From: Octopus vulgaris
Lineage: Eukaryota
Direction of reading: 5' to 3'
Length of the DNA: 64,000 nt
Assembly (NCBI GenBank): GCA_951406725.2
Contig: OX597825.1
Coordinates: 45,818,001-45,882,000 of the forward strand
A program made the position numbers and the translations under genes. Each line of letters begins with the position of its first letter. Position 1 is the first letter of the stretch. The notes beneath the pieces were generated by a model. It saw only the letters and a program-made list of their open reading frames with translations, made no database searches and was not told where the DNA came from. Shown here piece after piece: positions 1 through 56,377 of the stretch.

Positions 1-123
1 GTCTAATTTGTGTTGATGATCCGAAAGCACATTGGTAAAATGGAAAGATTAAAAATTGTGGTTGTAGTTGCTTTGCGCATTTCTCAATGTGCTCACTAAA
101 AGGTATCATTCTATATTCTGGGA

Positions 124-516
124 ATGCAATCTGTTGTCGAGGGACAGAAATTTAAAGAGGGACAGAAATTCAAGATCAAATCTAACTTTACTTGTGCCTC
201 TGAAAACATAATTTATGTGATAAAATGCTCGGGCTGCCACCAAGACTACGTGGGGTCCACGGGACTATCACTCAGACGTAGATGCACACTGCATCGACAA
301 CAGATTGCATTCCCAGAATATAGAATGATACCTTTTAGTGAGCACATTGAGAAATGCGCAAAGCAACTACAACCACAATTTTTAATCTTTCCATTTTACC
401 AATGTGCTTTCGGATCATCAACACAAATTAGACTATACAAGGAAACATTCTTCATTGAAAAGTACAAACCCAGACTCAACTATCCAAACATAATAATACA
501 GAGAAATTCACACTAA
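124..516 (+). pseudogene. GIY-YIG endonuclease C-terminus of a Penelope-like element (5' truncated)
   Basis: ORF has FTCASENIIYVIKCSGC..YVGSTG..LRRR...H...E.FFIEKYKPRLN, the Penelope GIY-YIG layout. Confidence 0.85.
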
Positions 517-11504: not shown

Positions 11505-14500
11505 TTAGGAAGATGGATACGTTAGGAGTTCAGAACTTACCCGAAAAACTTGCACAAACCTTGCTGGCCATCGAACTGTTCTTCCTGATTTGGTGTGTCG
11601 GGGTTGTGCAGAATCTGTGGTGTTCGCTGGAGTTGCCGAGTCTGTTTGAGGAAAAGAGGGGACTGAATGTAAGTCCTCCTCGATGAAAGCTTTTTTTAAA
11701 CGATCAATCGAGACCGTATTTCGTTTACCTCCAATATCGAGGACGAAATACTTGGGTTCTCTTTTGATGACCTTGTAGGGCCCGGAATATGGTGGTCGAA
11801 GTTGAGAGGGTATCCCATCATTCCTCACGAAGACATGAGTCCATGTGTTGATATCTTTTGGGACACGTGAAACGACGTTCTGTTGTCTGGGGCCTGAAGG
11901 TGATAACTGCGACATAGATGTTCGTAATCGGTGCACATATTGTTGTGGGTCAGGGAAGTTTTGTGAAACAGGTTCGATCATCTGCCCAGGTAAGGTGAGT
12001 GTTGTGCCATAAACGAGTTCGGCCGGAGTATATCCCAGTTCTTCCTTAATCGTGGATCGAATTCCAAGGAGGATGAGAGGGAGATGTTCCAACCAGTGAG
12101 AACTGTCTGGAGCTGCTTTTATAGATGCCTTGAGTTGGCGGTGAAAGCGTTCCACCATGCCATTTGCTGCAGGGTGGTAAGCTGTAGTGCGGGTGTGTTT
12201 ACACCCGAGGAGACGAGTCAGCTCGGTGAAAAGGTGGGAATCGAACTGACGTCCTCTGTCGGTGGTAATTGTTGCGGGTGTGCCAAAACGCGAAACCCAT
12301 TGTGATATCAGCGTTTTAGCGACCGTTTCTGCTGATATATCAGATAGGGGCCAGGCTTCGGGCCATCGCGAGAACCTATCTACGCAAGTTAGCAAATATG
12401 AATAGTTCTGCGAAGGTGGCAGGGGTCCAACGATGTCAATGTGAACGTGCTGAAATCGTGCATCGGGCTGCGAAAATGAACCGATTGGTGATTTTATGTG
12501 CCGGTGGATTTTCGCTTTTTGGCACGCAACACAGCACTTGGTCCATTCTCTGATATCCTTGTTGATACTGGTCCACACAAAACGGGTCGATATTAGCTTT
12601 TGAGTGGAGCGAATACCAGGATGTGACAGAGAATGTAGAGCGGAGAAAACTTCTCGACGATATTTCTGTGGTACATAAGGGCGTTGGTAACCAGTGGAAA
12701 TATCACACCAAATATGGGCTGTGGATGATGGTAGCGGAACATGCTGAAATTTCAGAGATGACGAATTCCGGAGCTTTAGAAGTTCTTCGTCATTCTCCTG
12801 GTCAGCTGCTATACGTGCCAGATCAATTGTAGACGTGGTGTGGATAGCATTGATCTGCGCACGTGAAAGTGCATCGGCTGCCACGTTGGTCGTCCCTTTG
12901 ATGTGGCGTATATCCGTCGTGTACTGCGATATGAAGTCGAGGTGGCGTATTTCTCTTGGCGAATGGCGATCCGGTTTGGTGTTAAATGCGTATACTAATG
13001 GCTTGTGGTCGGTGTATATGGCAAAATTGGTACCTTCTAGCATATGACGGAAATGCTTAACGGCCAGGTATGCCGCCAATAATTCCCGACTGAATGTGCT
13101 GTATTTGGTTTCCGCGGGTTTTAACCGCTTAGAAAAGAAAGACAACGGTTGCCATATACCGTCAACAAGCTGTTGTAGCACACCTCCGATTCCGGAATCG
13201 GATGCATCAACGAGTAAACATCGTGGGGCGTCTGGTTTTGGATAAACCAACATGGTAGCGCTAGATAACGCTTTTTTCAGGGCAGCGAAAGAAACGAGTT
13301 GATCTTCGGTCAGAGCTATATCTGCATTTTTGCAGGTTCGCTGACGTAGCAAATCCGTGAGCGGTTGCGCTATTTCAGCGAGGTGGGGCACGAACCGTCG
13401 ATAGAAATTCGCTAGACCGAGATATTCCCTTAATTTGCGGAGAGATGTGGGTGGTGGAAAATCCACGATGGCCTTGACTTTCTCGGGAAGAGGACGAATT
13501 CCATTTTTATCGACTATATGCCCGAGAAAATGAAGGGAAGCAACTCCGAACAAACATTTAGTAGGGTTGATAACAATTCCAAATCGACGTAGACGTCCGA
13601 ATAGCAGGTGAAGGTGTTGATTATGCTCTTCGTCCGAGTTACTGGCCACGAGTATGTCGTCTATGTAGGCATAGACGAAAGGCAAACCTCTAGTCACCAT
13701 GTCGATAAACCTTTGGAATGTCTGTGCTGCGTTTCGTAAACCGAAAGGCATACGCAGGAATTCAAACATTCCGAAAGGTGTAGTAACTGCTGTCTTTGAG
13801 ATGTCTGCAGGTTCGACTGGGATTTGGTTGTATGCTCGCACCAGGTCGATTTTTGAAAAGATGCGAGCTCCATGCAGCGAGCTCGAAAAGTCCTGAAGAA
13901 AAGGCACCGGATAGGCATCACTGATAGTGCTTTTATTCAGTGATCGATAATCGCCGCAAACCCGCCAATCGGTCGATGATTTTTTTGGGACGCAGTGTAT
14001 CGGCGAGGACCAGTTGCTGCTGGAAACGCGGATGATTCCGAGGTCGAGCATGTGCTGGAATTCCCGCTTGACGGCCTGGAGATGATCAGGTGGTAACCTT
14101 CTGGGCCTTGCAGCAACAGGTGGACCGCTGGTTTTGATGTGGTGGGTAACGTCGTGCTTTATCGGCTGGTTATGAAAAACTGGCCGGGCGACATCTGGAT
14201 AATCATTCAGGATGGAACTGTGACGAGTCGTTGTCGTAAGCATTACAGTTGGGCTGACTGTGTCCATTCGAGCGGCTATACCGCGCACAGTAAGCTTGGT
14301 GGTGGTGTCGACAAGTCGTCTGTTCTTTATGTCTACCAGGAGACCGAAATGATGCAGGAAATCGGCTCCTAAGATAGGGGTCGGCAGTTTAGCGACGACG
14401 AATACCCACTGAAATGTGCGGCGTAGTCCTATGTTTAATGTTAGGGACTGTTCACCGTAGGTTGGAATGGGTGAATGGTTGACTGCCTGAAGACAGACTG

Positions 14501-14795
14501 ATGTCTCTTTTCTTTTTCCAGAAGTGTTGGAGACTGGGATGATGCTGACTTCCGCACCTGTGTCAACCAGGAAACGCGTGCCTGTTACACGATCGCAAAC
14601 GAAAAACAGGCGACTGTGTGGGTGCGAACCAGGAACTTCCGTCGCGTTCAATTTCCTGGCTGTGCCGTTTCCCGAACTGGGTGAGGAAAACGAGCACGGT
14701 ACCGTACATTTTTGTGCCCGTGTTCCGAATGTTCGGTGGTACCAACACGTGTCATGTGAGTTGCGGGTAGCACGGGCTTCGGGACCGTCTGCCAT
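11505..14795 (-). CDS. pol: Gypsy Pol: CWYH zinc motif, aspartic protease, RT, RNase H, integrase
   Basis: [54 protein letters not shown]; open for 1096 aa. Confidence 0.95.
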
Positions 14796-15522
14796 CTCGT
14801 CGAGATCGGCTGGTGCTTCGACGCTGGGGACTAAACTTTAGGGCTTGTATTTGGGCTGTGAGAATTTGTATTTGCGCAGCTTGCTGCGTCATTAATGCAC
14901 GCAAATCCGAAATCTCGGAAAAACTGGTTTGTGCACGGAAAGGATTGGTACTGGGAGCGGCTGGCGTCACCGTCGATACCGTTGGATATCTGTGCGGTAC
15001 TTCGGCTATTTTGTCAGCTAGCTCCGCCAGTTCTTCAAGGGATGTGTTTTCTCTGGTGGACGCGAGAACAACCTGGGTATTGGAGGGCAGACGCTGGAGA
15101 AAAAGTTGCTTGAAGATTTTTTCTGGGAGCGTCTCATCTCCGAGAAGCTGTTTCATTCTCCGAAGAAGCTGGGACGGCGTTTTGTCACCCAATTCTTCCG
15201 ATATCAGAAGCTGGTGAAGTCTTTTTTGTTGGGATTCTGAGGTTCTGTTTATTAACGTGGTTTTAAAAACTTCATATGAAACAGAACCGGGTGGTGCCAT
15301 GATAAGGTCGCGTATTACGTTCGTTATTTCTGGTGACAGAGAACTGATAACGTGAGAAAGTCGAGCCGCATCGCTCGATATTCTGTGAGAGGCAAACTGT
15401 GCCTCTATATGGTGAAACCACAATGTCGGGTCGTGGGTCCAGAATGGTGGAATTTTTAACGAGATCGCCGCTTGGAATGCCATGTCGATGTTGGCCGCTG
15501 GAATTTGTTCCGGGAGATTCAT
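14752..15522 (-). CDS. gag: Gypsy Gag
   Basis: [40 protein letters not shown]; lies just downstream of the PBS. Confidence 0.9.
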
Positions 15523-15627
15523 TGTTTTCGTCGGAATTTTCAGTTGCTTCGTTGCTGGTGATGTGCAAACTGTAATTCTTCGACGCGGTTGATGAAGCTG
15601 ATTCCGGGGAAGGCGCGATTCGTTTTA

Positions 15628-32741: not shown

Positions 32742-33750
32742 TGCTTATACATGAAATATTAGAAAAAAACACCTTTTATCGATTCAGTGGAGAAACTGAG
32801 TAATTACACCATCTTGAAAATTGCATATCATAGGCAAGTTAAAATTAAAATGACAATTAAAAAGTAAAGATTAAGTAAATTACAAAAATAATATAATGTA
32901 TATAACAGGAAATATATATACACACACACATATATATATACACACATATACTAAATGTTCTACTATATTATATTGTAAATCGAAAGATGTGTCCTTCAAT
33001 GTATGATGAGTAAAATTTCAGCCATTTAATTTGGGGGAGAACTTAGCTATGAAATATTTTTCCATATTCCTCCTGAAAGAGGTGTCGTTCTTCGGACATT
33101 TGTGGAAGGGAAAGATCTTAAATTTTCCTTCTCCACACGTAGCTAGGTGTGTACTTAGTGGTATCTTGCGTAGTTCTTCCTGCCGAACATGTTCGGTGAA
33201 TCCTGGCTCGCTGGCACAAAGAATTACCAGTTTCCCCTATGTAATCCTCCTTGCACGTGGGGTAGGTTATGCAGTATATAACGTTCTGCGTCTTGCAGTT
33301 CATATCTGCATTTACTTTGAATACGTAACCACTTTTAAATCTCATCTCTCTGTTTCCCTCTATGTATTTGTAGGTGGGATTGCTGCAGATCCTACATCTA
33401 CCATCTCCGCACTCTTTTGCAAAGAATTCCGTTTTAGTTTCTGAAGAGAATTTCGCTCTTGTTAGGTGTTTCTTTAGGTTTTTGTCCTGTCGTCTACTGT
33501 TTTTTAATGCTATATTTGTTTAATATGTTTTTCATTTTGGGGCTTTGTAAGGCTATTGGTAGGTTTGAATGTATGGTTTGGAACATGTTGGTAACTCCAG
33601 GGTTGTGCGTGTTTATAAAAGGGATAATGTTTTCTTTGTTTTTTGTTTTGGGTGTCTTGAGTTGTGCGATGTCTAGTTTCAATGCTCTTGTGATTCCATT
33701 TTCTATTAGTTTAAGGGGGTATTTTTGCTCTAGGAGGAAGTTTTTAAGTT

Positions 33751-45265: not shown

Positions 45266-47850
45266 GAAAAAGATATGAGAGGTAACACAGGAAGAAGAGA
45301 TGTTATTCAGCACCTGAAAAGAAGGTTCCCATGATCTTTTGGTAACAGACGTCATAATAGTTGTTCTTGCTTTTAACCTACTGTCATTCAAACATGTTAG
45401 AATTAAGGCTGTTGCCTCTACTGGGAGTGGGAGTAAGTAAGCATTGTATAAGAAAGTGTTTGGGGGTGTTGTAAATATAAGCATTATGAGCATTGTGGAT
45501 GTAAGCATTACTGATGGTGCAGATATAAATGTGGGAAAAAAAGGTAGAAGTATAAATATGCCAATGTTAAATAGGGTAAGTGGGCTGCTAACTGGTTTGG
45601 TTAGTTCAGAGAGGAGGAGAGAAAGGAAGGGCAGTGAGATTACCAATATAAGAAAGGGAGAGAGGAGAAGAGCAACTGGATGTCCGGTAAGAGAAACGAG
45701 GTTTCCGGTATTGGTGATAGGGCGGGAGAAGGTGGGCACAGCCATGAACAAGAGAGAGTCATTTTAGGGAGCAGAGCAAACAAGAAAGAATTATTTTAGA
45801 GAATAGTACGAAATATGTATATATATGTAGCCAAGAAACAAGGTTAGTAATGTTGTGAGCTAGGTGGGTTTGAATTGAATCAATGAGGTGATATGTGTGT
45901 GTATATATATATATGCTAGCGTTGCCGGGTCATAGTGCTAGTTTGGTATAAATTTGTTAAATTAAAAATTTGGGGTAATAAAACATACAATGACATATTA
46001 AAAAGACGAATTTCCAGAGAAAAATACATAGACGATAAATATACAAATTTACAAAAATACATAAAAGTTCATCTACCTTTCAATGTGCCTACATTTACAG
46101 GAGATGCGCCAATTAATATGAAACATATCATATATTTAAAATTGACACTCCCCTCGTCAGGATGTTTTTTACACACAACACATAGTACACGGAAACAAAT
46201 GCACAATTACATACCGGCTACATGCGAAAAACCAGACATTACGTACTCCCCAAAATTCTCATAAATACTGAATGCTACTTTATAAGCATATAATTCAATC
46301 TAGCAGCTATAGTAAATGGTATGCGCACAGCTCCATCTGGACTAATTCACTTCTGCACTCAATTAAATTTTTAATCTTTTAATTTCTCCCATTCATGCAA
46401 AGCCACATATTCGAGTTCAAGTCCTTGATACATTTTATACTAATTGCTATTTTTTCTTTTAATTGTTATATTACGATTTAATTACCATGCTTTAGTTTTA
46501 ATTACTACTTACTATATTTACTATATTTAATTCAATTGTTATTATTACCTCTAACTTTTATTGCTATTTTTATTTCTAAATTTCTTATGGAACGTCGAAT
46601 GGATCTTATGCGTATAATATATTTTTATATGATGTTTATATATTTATATATTACTATATATTTCTAAACGTCGGGCTTTATGTCTGTTCTGTAGATATAA
46701 ATGAATATATGAATATATGTATGTGTTTGATCTTTCTGTGGATTTTGTAGTGCTCTTGTAGTTGCTGCTCACATTGCCTCCCCTCGGATTAAAAAGTGTA
46801 TACAGCTCATTTGAGCACAACTATTCCAGTCTGTTATATATTTTGAGCGCTGTTGTCACTAACGATCTCAAGATATAACTTTATATTTTGTAATATATAT
46901 ATATACATATATACATCCATATACATACAATAGAGAGATGTTTTTGTTTCACTTTTAACACGTAATACTGAAATAGTGGAGAAGATATGATATTGCTGTG
47001 GGCTCGCTCTAGGCAAGAAGTTAAACATTTTTTTGTCCATGATACTACATGGACCCTAAGTAAGGCATATGTAAAATTTGAATGAAATTGGTTTTGTAGT
47101 TCTCAAGTTTTAGGGAAACACACAGACAGACACACATTCTCAGTTTTATATATATAGATATATATATATTTAACGGTTGAAATTATTTTGTAAACAATAT
47201 AATACGATATGTCGGTGACGAAAAGGATTTGTTTAACAAATACTGTGAGATGTGAAAGATAGACAATGCATGAAGTTTTAAGGAAATGTTTATTTACCGT
47301 TACGTCTTGACGGGCAGGTTTTGATACATCCAAAAGCATGCGAAGTAAAGTTTGTGTATGTGTCCTCTTCATTATTTAGTAGTAGTAATTACAGAGAGAG
47401 ATAGAATGATGTTGTAAGAGAACAGAATTGGAGCTAGTGAGAATTGTAGGGTGTTGTCTGACAGTAAACTTAATTTCTCCATCTGACCAAGGTCAGTCAG
47501 CCAGACTACGTTCTTACTGAGTTTGTCACCGACTGGTGACTAACTGCGTTGAGTCGTCAGAACTGTGACGAACTGATTTTTGCTTGGAGTGTGTTTGCTT
47601 ATATAAAGATGCAGCAGGATAGATATATCATTGAGAACAATAGTTGGTGGTCTTGTTATCTCTATTATAGCTTTTGGTGAAGTAGAAGAGGTTAGAAAGG
47701 GTCAAGTAGCGAAGACATTATTTCGGCCTAGCTAAAGACATCTGGAAAATGTAAAACTGCTGTTAGAGAAAAACCATTGTTCTACCATGGGAACAGTTCT
47801 GGTGCAGCGTTAATTTAAATTTGGCTATGGTGGATCCACTACATATATAC

Positions 47851-47928
<78 letters not shown>

Positions 47929-48252
47929 CGGGAAGGTTTACGAAAATAAACAAAAGACGAAGGCAGGTTTGCGAAAACAAGAGACGAAGGCAGGTGGAGT
48001 ACAAACAAACAATGTATTAGTATGGCAATATATATATATATAATTAATATAGGATAAAATTTTTTTCGGGAAAAAAATTTTATCAATGGCCAGCATATCA
48101 AAAAATGCCTTTAAGGGTAAAATTTATACATAATTTACAAGATAAGGGCAGAAGAAAAATTCTAATGCCAAATATGCTGAAACAAAAAAAATTGTCGATA
48201 ACCATTATAATTTATGCGTCTCGAAACAAACCGATAGAAATCTCTAAAAAAT

Positions 48253-48327
48253 TCGTTATTACCGTATTGGTCCAATTTCAGGGTTAATTCATAAGAAATT
48301 TTCCCCTCTTCAGCGGCAAATACGCGA
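48253..48327 (-). ncRNA. Type I hammerhead ribozyme (array copy 1)
   Basis: gccg CTGAAGA gggg..ccct GAAA ttgg-a-ccaa TA cggt. Confidence 0.8.
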
Positions 48328-48625
48328 GATATAAATGAAATACTTACTCATACCCAAGGAAAAAGCAAGCACTAAGTCCCGAGCAGACTTAAGTACCCCA
48401 AATATATCCAAAATAGAAAAATCTTCGGCGCACCTCGAGACACGTGTGATTCGAACTAGAAACTTTCACAGTGATAGAATCCGGAAGTGAACACTAATCT
48501 ATTTATAATTAATATAGGATAAAATTTTTTTCGGGAAAAATTTTTTATCAATGGCCAGCATATCAAAAAATGCCTTTAAAGTGCTTGCTTTTTTCATGGG
48601 TATGAGTAAGTATTTCATTTATATC

Positions 48626-48700
48626 TCGCGTATTTGCCGCTGAAGAGGGGGAAATTTCTTATGAATTAACCCCGAAATTGGACCAATACGGTAATAACGA
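48626..48700 (+). ncRNA. Type I hammerhead ribozyme (array copy 2)
   Basis: CTGAAGA 48640-48646, helix II gggg/cccc, GAAA 48674-48677, helix III ATTGG/CCAAT; predicted cut after A48688. Confidence 0.85.
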
Positions 48701-49073
48701 ATTTTTTAGAGATTTCTATCGGTTTGTTTCGAGACGCATAAATTATAATGGTTATCGACAATTTTTTGTTTCGGCATATTTGGCATTAGAATTTTTCTTC
48801 TGCCCTTATCTTGTAAATTATGTATAAATTTTACCTTTAAAGGCATTTTTTGATATGCTGTCCATTGATAAAATTTTTATCGTATATTAATTATAAATAG
48901 ATTAGTGTTCACTTCAGGATTCTATCACTCTGTGAAAGTTTCTAGTTCGAATCACATGTGTCTCGAGATGTACCGAAGATTTTTCTATTTTGGATATATT
49001 TGGGGTACTTAAGTCTGCTCGGGACTTAGTGCTTGCTTTTTCCTTGGGTATGAGTAAGTATTTCATTTATATC

Positions 49074-49148
49074 TCGCGTATTTGCCGCTGAAGAGGGGAA
49101 AATTTCTTATGAATTAACCCCGAAATTGGACCAATACGGTAATAACGA
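49074..49148 (+). ncRNA. Type I hammerhead ribozyme (array copy 3)
   Basis: CTGAAGA 49088-49094, GAAA 49122-49125; predicted cut after A49136. Confidence 0.85.
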
Positions 49149-49264
49149 ATTTTTTAGAGATTTCTATCGGTTTGTTTTCGAGACGCATAAATTATAATGG
49201 TTATCGACAATTTTTTGTTTCGGCATATTTGGCATTAGAATTTTTTCTTCTGCCCTTATCTTGT

Positions 49265-49328
<64 letters not shown>

Positions 49329-49854
49329 GTATGAGCAAAACGCTCCCCCCGGCCAATGGATGGTGCTGAATCATATCTGCTGAATAAAAAGCAATCAGTG
49401 GTTTCTTTTCATTAAAAAATAATTAAACATGCCTTTATTTCAATAAAATTTTGGGTTTTGTTAATCGAAGTTAAAGCAAAAAAAAAAACTTCTTGAAAAA
49501 CTAAATAGTCTTCATGCCAAGTTTGAAGAAAATATCTCTTTTGCATCTTACTTTTTTGGTCTCTTAAATATACTGCATTTTGTGGCATTATTTCAAGCCA
49601 GCCGGCCTTTTTTGCGCAAACTGCATGTGCATTTTTCTCACGTACACGTAGTATCTATCGCAACAGCTGATGTACTTGCACGTACAAATGCACGTTCCCA
49701 CGGGTTTATCGATCGCATTCTCACCTGGAATCGATTTTTGTAATTTTTTCAAGATACCGTCGTATCTACATATCAAATTTGAGCACAATCGGATGGAGGA
49801 TGCCTGAGATCCTAGAAGACACACACACAGACAGACAGAACGGATTTTATATAG

Positions 49855-50099: not shown

Positions 50100-53000
50100 G
50101 AATCAAAGTCATACCAGTTTCATCAATTGCTTTTCACTGGCTTTGAATGTGCACTGATTACCAAACTGTGTCGGGTCTACTAGTCCCTGAGTAAAATGAT
50201 TATATACAAGGGAGGTAAGTAGTCCTGGGACTGGTGCAATTAGGGTAGATGTAATATTGTAATATGAATGGTGTATGGAATGTATAGGAATTAGTGATAT
50301 TAATGGTAAGGTTAGTAGTGTTCTATATTATGTTATGTGTTCATGTTGAGTTGTGGATGATATTTATTGATGAAAGTTGCTTCTTTATTCATTCCTTGCT
50401 GAACTAAGGTGATATAAAGGGAAATTTGGAAGTTAGGATTAAGGTTCCTAGCACACCTTTCTATGTGTTCACTGACCTGTAACTGTCTGTATTGTGGATA
50501 GCGGATTTGTTCTTTGGGAAGAATTGTTCTTCGACGGAGTGACATTCCTGTTTGGCCAATATAATGATTACACACACCCTAAGCAGGTAATGGCATAGAT
50601 TAGGTTTTCCGAGGCACAGGTGAAATTTGATTTTATCTTAAATATTTCACCTTGTTTAAAGTGAACTATGTACCCTCCAAAAGGTGGGGGCATGTGCCAC
50701 AGTTAGGCTGACCGCATTTTTTCACTTTTGGTTCCCTTGCGTTGGTTAATATTTTTTTCAATGATTTCGGTTGCATTTTACTCTTGATAATTTTCTGTGA
50801 GCCTAAAATTCTGTTCATTGTTTTATCTCCTGTGAGGATGGGTAGATTTTGGATGATAATTTTGAAAGACTTGTTGTTTCTAGGGTTGTTGTGGAGATGT
50901 ATGGGAGTATTTTTAAGTCTGGTGCAGTAGTTTGGTTTACTTCCCTTAATGTTCATATGTCTATTTCCTTTGCTCGTTTAATCCCATCATTTATTAATGA
51001 TGTTGGGTAATGTCCCTTGATTAGTATTGATCTGAGTTCAAGGAGTCTTCATTCCTGAGTATTGGTGTCCAAAACTATGGTACATACTCTTTTCGCTAGA
51101 TTATAAGGTATATTAATTTTTATGTGTTTGGGATGGCATGAGTTGAACAATAGGTATGGTTTTGAATCTGTGGGTTTATAGATGCCCGTTTCGATGTGAT
51201 TATTGACTATTTCAATTAGGATGTCAAAAAGTTTATTGCTGTGTTCCATGGTGAATTGTATGTTGCTATTGATATTGTTGAGCATTATTTTGAAATCGAG
51301 GAGTTTGTCCATGCTATCTTTCCCGAGCATAAAGCAATCATCTAAATACCTCTTCCAGTTCTCCTTTAAATAGCAATGAAATGAGGTGCCATATTTTTGT
51401 AGTGATGATTGGTATATTTTAAGTTCTAGGTAACCCATTACAAGGTTCGCAATCACTGGGGCAGCTCGACTTCCTATTGCAATTCCACATTTGTCGATAG
51501 TAAACTGTATCGAACAGGAAATAGTTGTTCAGTAGGATGAATTTCAGTTCTGCAATTATGAATCTATGATTGATACACCCTGGGATTTCTTCTGGGTATT
51601 TTTGTAGCCAGAAGGTGATTGCTTCTATACCATAATCGCATGGGCTGTTGGTGTACAAGTTCACCACATCGAATGATACTAACAGGGTTCTTGCATTTAT
51701 TGTCTTTGGGAAGTGGTTGAGCATGTCTAAGTCATCCCTGATGAAGCTTTTCACATATTTTAGAAATGGTTTGAGTAAGATGTCGGGGAAATTGCTCAAA
51801 TGGTGGGTTTCACAAGCAGGGCCAGCAATGATGAGTCTTAGTTTGAAGTCAGTAAGGGGAGGAACATTAATGCATAGGCTTGGAGAATCTTTGCAAGCTT
51901 TACAATTATGTGAATTTTTGCGTTTTAGGTAATCCATAAAAAAGACTTGGTCTGTATTTAAAATTGGATAAATAGTCAATTTCTTTTTCAGTGAGGTCCT
52001 TTCCATGTACTTGAGATAAGTAGGATAAGTTTTTAAGTGTCTTCTGTGGGTTGTATTGTATTATCTACTCATAGTAAATATTGCTTTCCAACATGGAGAG
52101 TATTACATTTTTATAGCACTTAGTGTCCATCATTACTACCGCACTTCCTTTATTGGTTTTCTTAATGGTCAAGTTTATATCATTGTTTAACTAGATTCAG
52201 TTTTTCCATTCATTTGTGTTAAGGGTGGATTTAATTCGTTGATTTTGTGGGGCATTGAAAGGAAAATTTGTAATGTGTTCACAAAAATCATCAAATGCTT
52301 TATTTCTGCCTTTTGTCTATTTCGCTTTTGTTTTTTACTATTGAGTCATCTTCATAGGTGTAGTTTCTGTGAGGTGCAATTTTTTTGCAAAAATCCATTG
52401 TGTTATCCTTGATTTCATTCAGGTCCTATCTGCGAGGGGTTGGTCTAAAATTTAAACCTCTTGCCAGAATTTTAGTTTGTGTAGTACTTAGGATTTTCTT
52501 TGATAAGTTGATTATTTTCAGTTGTTCTTGTACATTTTGTTCCATTTCACATCTCTGTTTCTCTGATTTAGGTCTAAAAAATGGTTGTAGTAGGTGGATT
52601 GTTGTGGGAAGTCTGTGTTGTGTTTGGCTTGATGAGGAGAAAATGGCTGTAAAGCGTGTCTGTGGTAGTATGCTTGTTGTGGAATGACTGTAGTGGACTA
52701 AATTATGGCTGTACTGAGGGTTGTTATATTGTCTATGGTTGATGAGGTTTGGGTTAAATTTATTTTTAATTTTGTAATGTGGGTGGAGGGAGAAGTTATG
52801 TTGTCGAGTTAGGTTGTGTCTAGTTGAATGCTAGAAGTATTCATGTTGAGGGTTAAGTCTCGGAGGTAGGTTTTTCCATTGTTTGTGAGATGATGGGAGT
52901 AGATTGGTTGGTAGTGGTTTCAGGAAGTTTAGGTTAGTCTGGAGGCTTGGATGGGTCTTTTGATTTGTATGTAGGGAGCCTTGAAAATTACGTCCGGATT

Positions 53001-54059: not shown

Positions 54060-55290
54060 AAAATGAGCACCAGCAGAAACTGGATAAAATATTGAAGATC
54101 TTTTAAGAAGTAAGTGCACCCAAAAACACTTCAGATAATATAAACAAAAAGGGATTAGAAATAGTAAAATATCTTGGGTTAGATGATAGGAATGAACCAT
54201 ATACCCCCCACCAAAAAAAACAACCTAGTATAAACCTATAGGACCACAAAGATAACTTTGATAGTGACCCTAAAATGAGATTAATATGTCCGTCGAAATT
54301 GAACATTAGACATATAAGTAAAAACATCATAGAGAGAGTAATGCCCGTAGTAAAAACTAAGATTGGACGTTCATTGTGGTCCTGCACTCAGGAGGTTATA
54401 GGATGGTTTATGAGAACAGAGGAAACTAAAAAGTCTAAATTTATACAATTAGATATAGATAGTTACTATTCCACGATTAATCCTATAGTACTAAATAAGG
54501 CTCTTATTTTCACAATGAAGATCTCTAGTTTATCTAGGACAGACGTGGACATAAGTTTAACAGCTTGTCAAACTGTCATTATTTACGATAACAAACTATG
54601 GACAAGATCAGATAGGGCTAATTCCTTTGATATAATAATGGGATCGAGTGGCTCAGCTCAAGTAATGGATATCATTAGAATCTACCTCTTACCCCAGGTC
54701 AAATCTGAATTTCCACAGATAATGGGAGATGTCAATAAAATTGAATTTGAAATGATTCATCAAAAAAGATCCAACAAAAAAGATTGCCGATTCCTCAATG
54801 CTTCAGACACTAACAATCAAATGGAAGCTCATGAAAACAGAATCAAAAGGCCACCAGATAAGCATAAAAGTAATAATAGTACAAATAACTGCACATGCCG
54901 TAGAAAATCTACGTGTCCGAAAAAACATGGTATACAAATGCACAATCTCCACATTCCAACATAAATACGTGTACATAGGTGCCACGGAAAACCAGCTCAA
55001 AGTCCATTATTGCAACCACATCTTGTCATTCCAAAAAATAAACGGATGACATGCAACTTCACTGATAGACCTCATATGGGGACTGAAATAATCAAAAATT
55101 AAATACAAAATGAAATGAAATGGTCAATAATATAAAATGCACACCCATGTAATACGCTATTTGTAAAATGTGACTTTTGCATTGAGGAAGCATTGAGTAT
55201 ACTGCTGAGTAATGAGAACCTGGTAAGCAAGCATGAAAATTCCAAGGTGTAACCACTGAGTAAAATATATATTTTCAAGATTATTCTGTT
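54060..55290 (+). mobile_element. Degenerate Naiad-like Penelope element fragment (RT + GIY-YIG)
   Basis: RLICPSK..ISK, W..T.EVI.WF, FIQLDIDSYYSTI, CTCR...CP, YIGATEN..K..Y.NH..SF. Confidence 0.65.
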
Positions 55291-56077: not shown

Positions 56078-56111
56078 ACCGAATAATTGTCACATATTAT
56101 GTTTACAGATA

Positions 56112-56145
<34 letters not shown>

Positions 56146-56196
56146 CCTCGTGAGCACCGCCAGCGATTTTTTTTCCTCTGTCTTCCCTTCTTCTAT

Positions 56197-56231
56197 GTTT
56201 CCGACGAAGAGCTCCGCTCGAAACGTTAAAC
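56197..56231 (+). ncRNA. Minimal hammerhead motif, U4C variant
   Basis: gttt CCGACGA a gagc-tcc-gctc GAAA cg TT aaac; ACGT palindromic helix III. Confidence 0.6.
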
Positions 56232-56377
56232 CCTCCTTCTTCCCTTCTTTCCTGAGCGTCCAATAATACTTTATTTGTTCCACGTCTTCGCCTTGCTGTG
56301 TTTTTTTTTGTGTTTTCTTGTTTGGATTAACTATATCATCATCATCGTTTAGCGTCCGTTTTCCATGCTAGCATGGG

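Follow-up and report, generated by a model that had tools for sequence, protein, structure and literature searches.

Between positions 48039 and 49271 of the 64,000-nt stretch of Octopus vulgaris DNA analysed here (hereafter, the window), short non-coding units, each with a hammerhead ribozyme motif, stand both in tandem and in inverted orientation within a (TA)n microsatellite. What kind of element is this, which enzyme could have placed it there, and from what sort of RNA was it copied?

Anatomy of the insertion and its ribozymes

The sequence itself, repeat analysis, self-BLAST and alignment all bear out the layout described in the initial annotation, i.e. approximately 1.15 units on the minus strand and approximately 1.5 units on the plus strand, inverted and tandem, in (TA)n. 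The minus arm (48039 to 48579, minus strand) is 541 nt long and comprises 1.16 units of 465 nt; its 5' end lies at the central junction (48579), and its 3' end, denoted site S2, runs into (TA)n on the left side with TATA microhomology. The plus arm (48580 to 49271, plus strand) covers 692 nt or 1.5 units, with a period of 448 nt instead of 465 nt owing to the deletion of 17 nt from an A/U hairpin, and its 3' end, site S1, runs into (TA)n on the right side with TAT microhomology. The microhomology is therefore 3-4 nt long at both (TA)n-facing 3' ends, and it is at most 2 nt long at the central 5'-to-5' junction (48579 to 48581). In unit coordinates, S1 is 91 nt upstream of S2 and, since S2 lies that much further downstream, the insertion carries a one-sided extension, a tail-like stretch of 91 nt between the two sites (48039 to 48129, minus strand) that is found only at the 3' end of the minus arm. 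This tail includes a 32-nt A/U palindromic hairpin (48053 to 48084), a second copy of which is located at 48518 to 48549. The arms differ from each other by 1-5%, and they start and end at different positions of the unit. The GC content of the unit is 33%, and a six-frame check revealed no ATG-led ORF of note, in line with its earlier description as free of ORFs.

Both flanks were inspected for a target-site duplication of more than 4 bp, and both consist of (TA)n: a remnant of the target at 48028 to 48042 on the left, and a tract at 49269 to 49332 on the right. A longer left (TA)n tract, at 47843 to 47927, is separated from the remnant by an unrelated fragment of 99 nt (47928 to 48027). This fragment, embedded in the left (TA)n tract, contains an internal 21-nt duplication, is unrelated to the retrozyme unit and has no second copy within the window; it is likely a second TA-targeting element.

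Sequence, self-BLAST, motif scan and alignment identify three complete type I hammerhead cores, and the full core that had been claimed for each unit is indeed there. Hammerhead A (48634 to 48694, plus strand) has its C3 at 48640 and a predicted cut after 48688, and consists of helix I (48634-48639 with 48689-48694), CUGAAGA (48640-48646), helix II (48647-48650 with 48670-48673), GAAA (48674-48677) and the helix III palindrome (48677-48687). Hammerhead B (49082 to 49142, plus strand) has the same layout, with C3 at 49088 and a predicted cut after 49136, and hammerhead C (48259 to 48319, minus strand) has C3 at 48313 and a predicted cut after 48265. Each core combines CUGAAGA, a 4-bp helix II, GAAA, the near-palindrome AUUGGACCAAU, a UA site and a 6-bp proximal helix I; helix II continues into an interrupted extension, and helix I is further extended as well. 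The core nucleotides C3-U4-G5-A6-N7-G8-A9, G12-A13-A14, A15.1-U16.1 and H17 are present in all three copies, and three-helix pairing with an open helix I is possible in each of them. The pair G10.1-C11.1 occurs in two of the three; in hammerhead C it is G10.1-U11.1 (48280), which is the G-U pair previously remarked upon in the minus-strand helix II, and the family majority at this pair is G-C.

A motif scan of the 64-kb window in which helix III was required returned these three cores as its only matches. When the unit was shuffled, 1 of 5000 shuffles gave a match at loose criteria and none of 5000 did so at the observed helix lengths, and 30 shuffles of the whole window gave none; the three cores are far above chance. 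The Rfam check proposed at the outset returned no hammerhead among its 18 matches up to an E-value of 10 and, given that no hammerhead covariance model matches, the element is not filed under any Rfam family. Nor do these hammerheads count as "minimal" by the usage of Cervera and de la Pena (2014), as had been assumed: they possess a helix III, and A9 is not followed by an additional base. As for the variants found within the family, conservation of the core is not significant, since none of the 39 listed variant sites falls within the 13 core bases where 1.1 would be expected, and helix sites account for 3 of the 39 as opposed to 2.4 expected. Four of the seven varying helix sites keep or restore pairing, yet this is no sign of selection, because transitions alone give that result. 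One family variant, at 48271 (minus strand), has an extra G in the helix III palindrome and was found in 4 contigs of runs X10 and X15; in a dimer, it would replace the single A-A mismatch with tandem G-A mismatches.

A dispersed family and its probable mobiliser

The unit or a part of it occurs in 20 of the 24 listed sequencing runs (10 studies, 4 organism labels). The four DNA-type runs contain 4296, 4108, 2415 and 3480 matching contigs, respectively, and the identity bands of matching contigs extend from 99% and above to under 90%. Such figures imply a copy number of many hundreds or more, where summed contig depth should not be taken as a count of copies. The family is multicopy and dispersed, as seen from the many different flanks in the DNA-type runs, and a head-to-tail joint leading from 48579 to 48116 is found in all four of these. 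Metagenome contigs and viral contigs, scanned for the pattern, yielded 0 matches each.

The (TA)n seen at the ends of the insertion recurs in other family copies. In the DNA-type runs, where the loose-end figures are based on 24 of 713 rows, clear (TA)n loose ends at the S2-equivalent positions 48500 and 48510 make up three rows with 20-22 contigs each, in runs X2 and X3, and two further S2-type rows are mixed with a unit variant. Ends of the S2 type in (TA)n are also present in three of the four runs guessed as RNA (24 of 72 rows). One contig from the RNA-guess runs ends 5 nt from S1 with a TA/CA flank, and depth at the left edge is 0.18-0.31 of that in the next bin, compared with 0.56-0.68 at the right edge, a fall which weakly hints that many copies end at S1; the proposed fixed start at S1 is thus drawn from the window, one contig and one drop in depth. 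What is more, opposite-strand joints are found in runs X1 (2 of 15 rows) and X10, and a head-to-head joint at 48339 in X15 and X18; another head-to-head joint, on a single low-depth X18 contig, may be a fold-back artefact.

Most copies of the family diverge strongly in the 5' part of the unit, 48420 to 48500, where depth drops and loose ends cluster at 48419, and this divergence amounts to at least two subfamilies. We considered the loose ends at 48419 as a junction with an ORF and rejected the idea, since some 20 of 30 bases align to the unit by eye, as in a diverged subfamily. Contigs ending 2-3 nt from a predicted cut were likewise rejected as a sign of cleavage, since the DNA-type runs have them too.

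At the level of sequence, the features of a retrozyme are all found, i.e. head-to-tail units of a few hundred bp, a GC content below 50%, no protein and multiple copies. The initial view of the unit as retrozyme-like and non-coding is thereby supported, and so is its candidacy for a cephalopod retrozyme family, the best named relative of one RT in the window being from Argonauta hians (59%) among the 120 matches listed, most of which are without a name. We conclude that this is a new family of non-LTR retrozymes, with an octopod as its probable host.

Which enzyme could have moved such a protein-free unit? The anatomy of the insertion, with a partial tandem, an inverted 5'-truncated copy at the 5' end, a one-sided extension and (TA)n at both ends, supports the previously suggested mobilisation by Penelope-like elements (PLEs). 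The window as a whole is rich in transposons, with Gypsy and LINE reverse transcriptases (RTs) and a Helitron helicase. Broken, 5'-truncated remnants of Neptune-like PLEs, with a C-terminal GIY-YIG domain and a CxxxxCxxC-type linker, are located at 1 to 515 (plus strand), about 50330 to 51300 (minus strand) and about 33000 to 33750 (minus strand), and one of them ends about 1 kb to the right of the insertion. They have open-frame relatives at 90% and 68% identity (two matches among 92 candidates), and in the latter RT and GIY-YIG share a single frame. By the clade description given in Craig et al. 2021 (PMC8557442), the PLE remnants of the window are of the Neptune or Nematis type, and the CxxxxCxxC-type linker is hypothesised there to direct the targeting of microsatellites. 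A comparison of the unit with the four PLE remnants in the window gave no convincing match (best E 0.007 over 31 AT-rich nt), and it is for this reason that we can only infer a Neptune-type partner. In O. vulgaris, 31 recently active Penelope-like families have been described (PMC13282606), and the word ribozyme does not appear in the text and supplement of this repeat annotation, as consulted, although its repeat library may already include the present family under no name.

Several neighbours deserve a brief mention. A different broken PLE-like RT/endonuclease remnant is found at about 54300 to 55200 (plus strand). A Gypsy-type LTR element at 11505 to 15624 (minus strand) retains an open pol frame of 1109 amino acids (protease, RT, RNase H, integrase) along with a gag-like frame. 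Finally, a degenerate minimal hammerhead at 56193 to 56235 (plus strand), with a CCGACGA core and a short palindromic helix III region, lies beside (TA)n at 56110 to 56145 and probably represents the pLTR of another PLE family.

Predicted cleavage, template and fate of the RNA

The proposal that the ribozymes cleave as dimers is supported by the predicted folds. In the model, the unconstrained fold of the plus-arm RNA is the inner half of a double hammerhead, with the predicted cut after 48688: the crossed helix III has a probability of 0.76-0.87, the inner helix I of 0.82-0.89 and helix II of 0.84-0.97, as compared with at most 0.01 for the monomeric helix III on the same RNA. For the outer half, with the predicted cut after 49136, the 1.5-unit RNA that is still uncut gives a probability of 0.04 and a cost of 3 kcal/mol. 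In the 448-nt ring, the probability of helix III is 0.07-0.08; the active fold of the monomer lies 1-2 kcal/mol above the free fold, and a single hammerhead motif folds no better than its shuffles (z between -0.2 and -1.4). The ring on the ribozyme strand is predicted to be 62-63% paired (z of -4.5 and -4.8, 40 shuffles each), and the antisense ring has a z of -1.8 (40 shuffles). Cleavage is, accordingly to these models, predicted to proceed as a double hammerhead only, and not as a monomer or a ring.

Would the locus itself be productive? Five transcript starts were folded, and for the three of them that lie to the left of the central junction (48038, 48400 and 48520) the probability of the double hammerhead is 0.0 in each case. 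In other words, fold prediction has the double hammerhead lost once a transcript starts at least 60 nt to the left of the central junction; transcripts that begin within the plus arm retain a single ribozyme, and the active fold is kept only if the transcript starts at the central junction. The full read-through RNA is predicted to form 423 inter-arm pairs, so that the long duplex between the arms which had been proposed is upheld, and its length in the model is about 420 bp rather than the approximately 500 bp initially given. Because the read-through RNA folds into this long duplex and buries the ribozymes, the finished insertion at 48039 to 49271 is predicted to be a dead end, and probably is one. 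The initial annotation also had the locus release a 448-nt monomer, and this inference is weakened, in that the read-through hairpin abolishes the fold and the second cut has a probability of 0.04; with the fold lost here and the G-U pair in the minus copy, such a monomer would more likely come from head-to-tail arrays elsewhere.

The reading that we favour, with moderate confidence, is that of a protein-free retrozyme of approximately 465 nt, with a ribozyme predicted to act in dimers only, which was likely pasted into (TA)n by a Penelope-like and probably Neptune-type RT-endonuclease, at both ends of a break and from more than one RNA unit. The process would set out from ORF-free head-to-tail units such as those observed at the locus and across the family. 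Source arrays without the inverted arm would be transcribed as multimers, in which adjacent ribozymes are predicted to pair through the helix III palindrome and then cut, a lone monomer or ring being mostly inactive. A PLE protein would then nick (TA)n on both strands, and the pair of 3'-OH ends would prime at two UAU/UAUA sites separated by 91 nt, with more than one unit copied from each end. This would leave the two 5'-truncated copies joined head to head that are seen here, and the finished insertion would be a dead end. In Frangieh et al. 2024 (PMC11167929), a PLE protein is reported to nick AT-rich DNA on both strands and to extend each of them, starting at two internal sites, and therefore the chemistry for making two arms would be available.

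The alleles within the insertion bear on the template. Window units were compared with the family at 40 of 57 variant rows, the shares given being summed contig depths and not allele counts. At 8 sites, all covering window units keep the reference base where another base accounts for more than half of the depth, and since these 8 family-minority alleles are common to all of them, both arms come from one subfamily. Other sites distinguish the units: at 48433, a non-CpG site, the arms differ, and the other base makes up 61% of depth; at 48469, they differ by a 2-nt insertion found in 9-14 contigs per run; and at 48357, a base of approximately 3% of depth is common to the minus arm and the second plus unit, with the majority base in the first plus unit, which is the junction-proximal unit in this comparison. 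Three other differences between units are of the CpG type. Repeated copying of a single ring would yield units that do not differ, and for this reason the allele patterns disfavour a single ring; that the units carry both alleles of family polymorphisms appears to fit a mixed multimer or two RNAs better than one ring, and we regard this as moderate evidence. It should be noted that the insertion at 48469 could possibly recur by slippage, and that the arms could possibly have come to look like products of mixed templates through mutations acquired afterwards or through gene conversion between them. Copying from a single circle, as originally envisaged, is in any case doubtful for the insertion at 48039 to 49271, given these differences.

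One can also carry the argument further, and we do so tentatively. Namely, the halves of a dimeric Neptune-type RT-endonuclease might prime from both (TA)n break ends, each half on a multimeric RNA of its own that is still uncut, with two fixed priming sites separated by 91 nt. In that case rings would be side products and not the template, the ribozyme would cut multi-unit transcripts and spare monomers, and insertions would act as a self-silencing source of dsRNA. If this were true, each two-armed insertion would silence its own family via dsRNA.

We consider it unlikely that the same element and enzyme used one monomeric RNA ring, copied for more than one round from both primers, with the differences between units arising later. 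Such a ring would explain why both arms are longer than one unit and why all window units, with their 8 common minority alleles, belong to one subfamily; the ring is predicted to be stable and its ribozyme mostly inactive, circles have been shown for coral, mussel and axolotl retrozymes (PMC7229834), and a ring template was proposed by Cervera and de la Pena in 2014 (PMC4209133). What it does not readily explain is the presence of both alleles within one insertion, at the non-CpG site 48433 and at the 48469 insertion, or the majority base of the junction-proximal unit at 48357 next to a rare one in the other two units, a pattern that would need back-mutation or gene conversion.

Relation to known elements

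Retrozymes as a kind are already known, from a publication in 2020 and from a preprint in 2026. Like the metazoan non-LTR retrozymes described in PMC7229834, the present unit is an ORF-free, low-GC tandem repeat with one type I hammerhead, with a ring predicted to be highly self-paired, and coexists with PLEs; cleavage favoured in dimers, here by prediction, is shared with the axolotl retrozyme of the same paper. The differences are that the 465-nt unit exceeds the circles of 170-400 nt reported there, and that helix III is longer, with 4 bp in the monomer and 10 bp when crossed. The main text of that paper, as consulted, does not mention octopus, cephalopod, inverted or microsatellite, and we found no paper on cephalopod hammerheads or retrozymes in the open-access literature.

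Animal retrozymes have been proposed to be non-autonomous derivatives of PLEs (Li, Clavereau, Pollet 2026, bioRxiv 10.64898/2026.07.22.740005). The unit studied here is of the same class, with the same proposed mobiliser, a length inside their range of 51-972 bp and two consecutive complete hammerheads. As far as the preprint describes them, the 35 genomes of that study include no mollusc, its argument is built on co-occurrence and pLTR homology rather than on the anatomy of an insertion, as is the case here, and its pipeline starts from TRF, which misses the 1.5-unit array.

Insertions of endonuclease-bearing (EN+) PLEs of the Neptune/Naiad type, as described in Craig et al. 2021 (PMC8557442), resemble the present one in their partial tandem, inverted 5'-truncated copy, one-sided extension, (TA)n target and hammerhead in the repeat, and two internal start sites are shared with the PLE of Frangieh et al. 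2024 (PMC11167929). Unlike in EN+ PLE insertions, here there is no RT-EN ORF, both arms exceed one unit, and the extension is 91 nt long, as opposed to a published tail of 30-40 nt (PMC8557442). The minimal PLE hammerheads of Cervera and de la Pena 2014 (PMC4209133) have in common with ours a palindromic helix III region, a dimer design and G10.1-C11.1; they differ in that our copies possess a helix III, have A9 directly followed by G10.1, contain a helix II of 4 bp and not 7-8 bp, and extend the 6-bp helix I. In Schistosoma, hammerhead pairs on opposite strands lie 100-700 bp apart (PMC4209133). As the units abut with no ORF for RT and GIY-YIG between the repeats, such as would mark an autonomous PLE, the element is neither an autonomous PLE nor a minimal PLE hammerhead.

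Could the unit instead be the detached pLTR of an autonomous PLE, turned into a local tandem repeat that is copied passively, its hammerhead an inert relic? We find this quite improbable. Xenopus retrozymes have been traced to pLTRs, and in the same preprint 8 of 9 tested dimers remained uncleaved and 1 of 9 was cleaved (Li et al. 2026); moreover, the core shows no excess conservation in the family, and many copies exhibit CpG-type decay, all of which such an origin would accommodate. Yet ORF-free head-to-tail joints are present at two places in the window and in all four DNA-type runs, none of the 24 loose ends inspected (24 of 713 rows) continues consistently into additional coding sequence, the main divergent loose end, that at 48419, is homologous to the unit and represents a diverged form of it, and the double-hammerhead fold is, by prediction, intact. 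A DNA-level event (fold-back, MITE- or Helitron-like copying) or mis-assembly as the source of the inverted and tandem shape is very improbable since, even though inverted PLE-type structures trouble assemblies (PMC8557442), the central junction is known from the assembly alone and a Helitron helicase remnant lies elsewhere in the window, the arms differ in their start and end positions in the unit and by 1-5%, both 3' ends (in the polarity of the ribozyme) meet (TA)n with microhomology, and independent data sets contain (TA)n ends at the same position as well as other head-to-head joints.

Returning to copying by a Penelope-like enzyme from more than one RNA unit, the reading that we prefer, it is worth stressing that the mobilising enzyme of animal retrozymes and the role of the circle as template are still open in both the 2020 paper and the 2026 preprint. 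With a PLE footprint on a protein-free unit, the arm ends and allele patterns of many copies can therefore test both questions in a single genome. In addition, the unit could be used directly as a substrate in the in vitro PLE assay already established, where insertion could do without the PLE hammerhead, which itself needed the protein (Frangieh et al. 2024, PMC11167929).

A number of other candidates were tried and rejected. A Pol III promoter as the source of multimers is contradicted by the lack of an A-box and of a tRNA gene and by seven runs of at least 5 T in the unit; a B-box-like word at 48456 (minus strand) is matched in 141 of 5000 shuffles. For A-to-I editing, the RNA-guess runs do not exceed the DNA runs in the frequency of A>G and T>C sites. 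A spliceosomal intron around the ribozyme (donor 48606, acceptor 48709) is not supported: 99 of 5000 shuffles have both sites, and none of the four joints in the RNA-guess runs skips the ribozyme. The sequence that follows the unit on one X18 contig (depth 8, RNA-guess run) matches the 64-kb window at chance level; on this contig the unit breaks off no more than one base from a GTAAGT donor-like site at 48347 (minus strand), equivalent to 48606 and 49054 (plus strand), and the junction may reflect either the unit being spliced onto an exon further downstream or a genomic junction that arose by chance.
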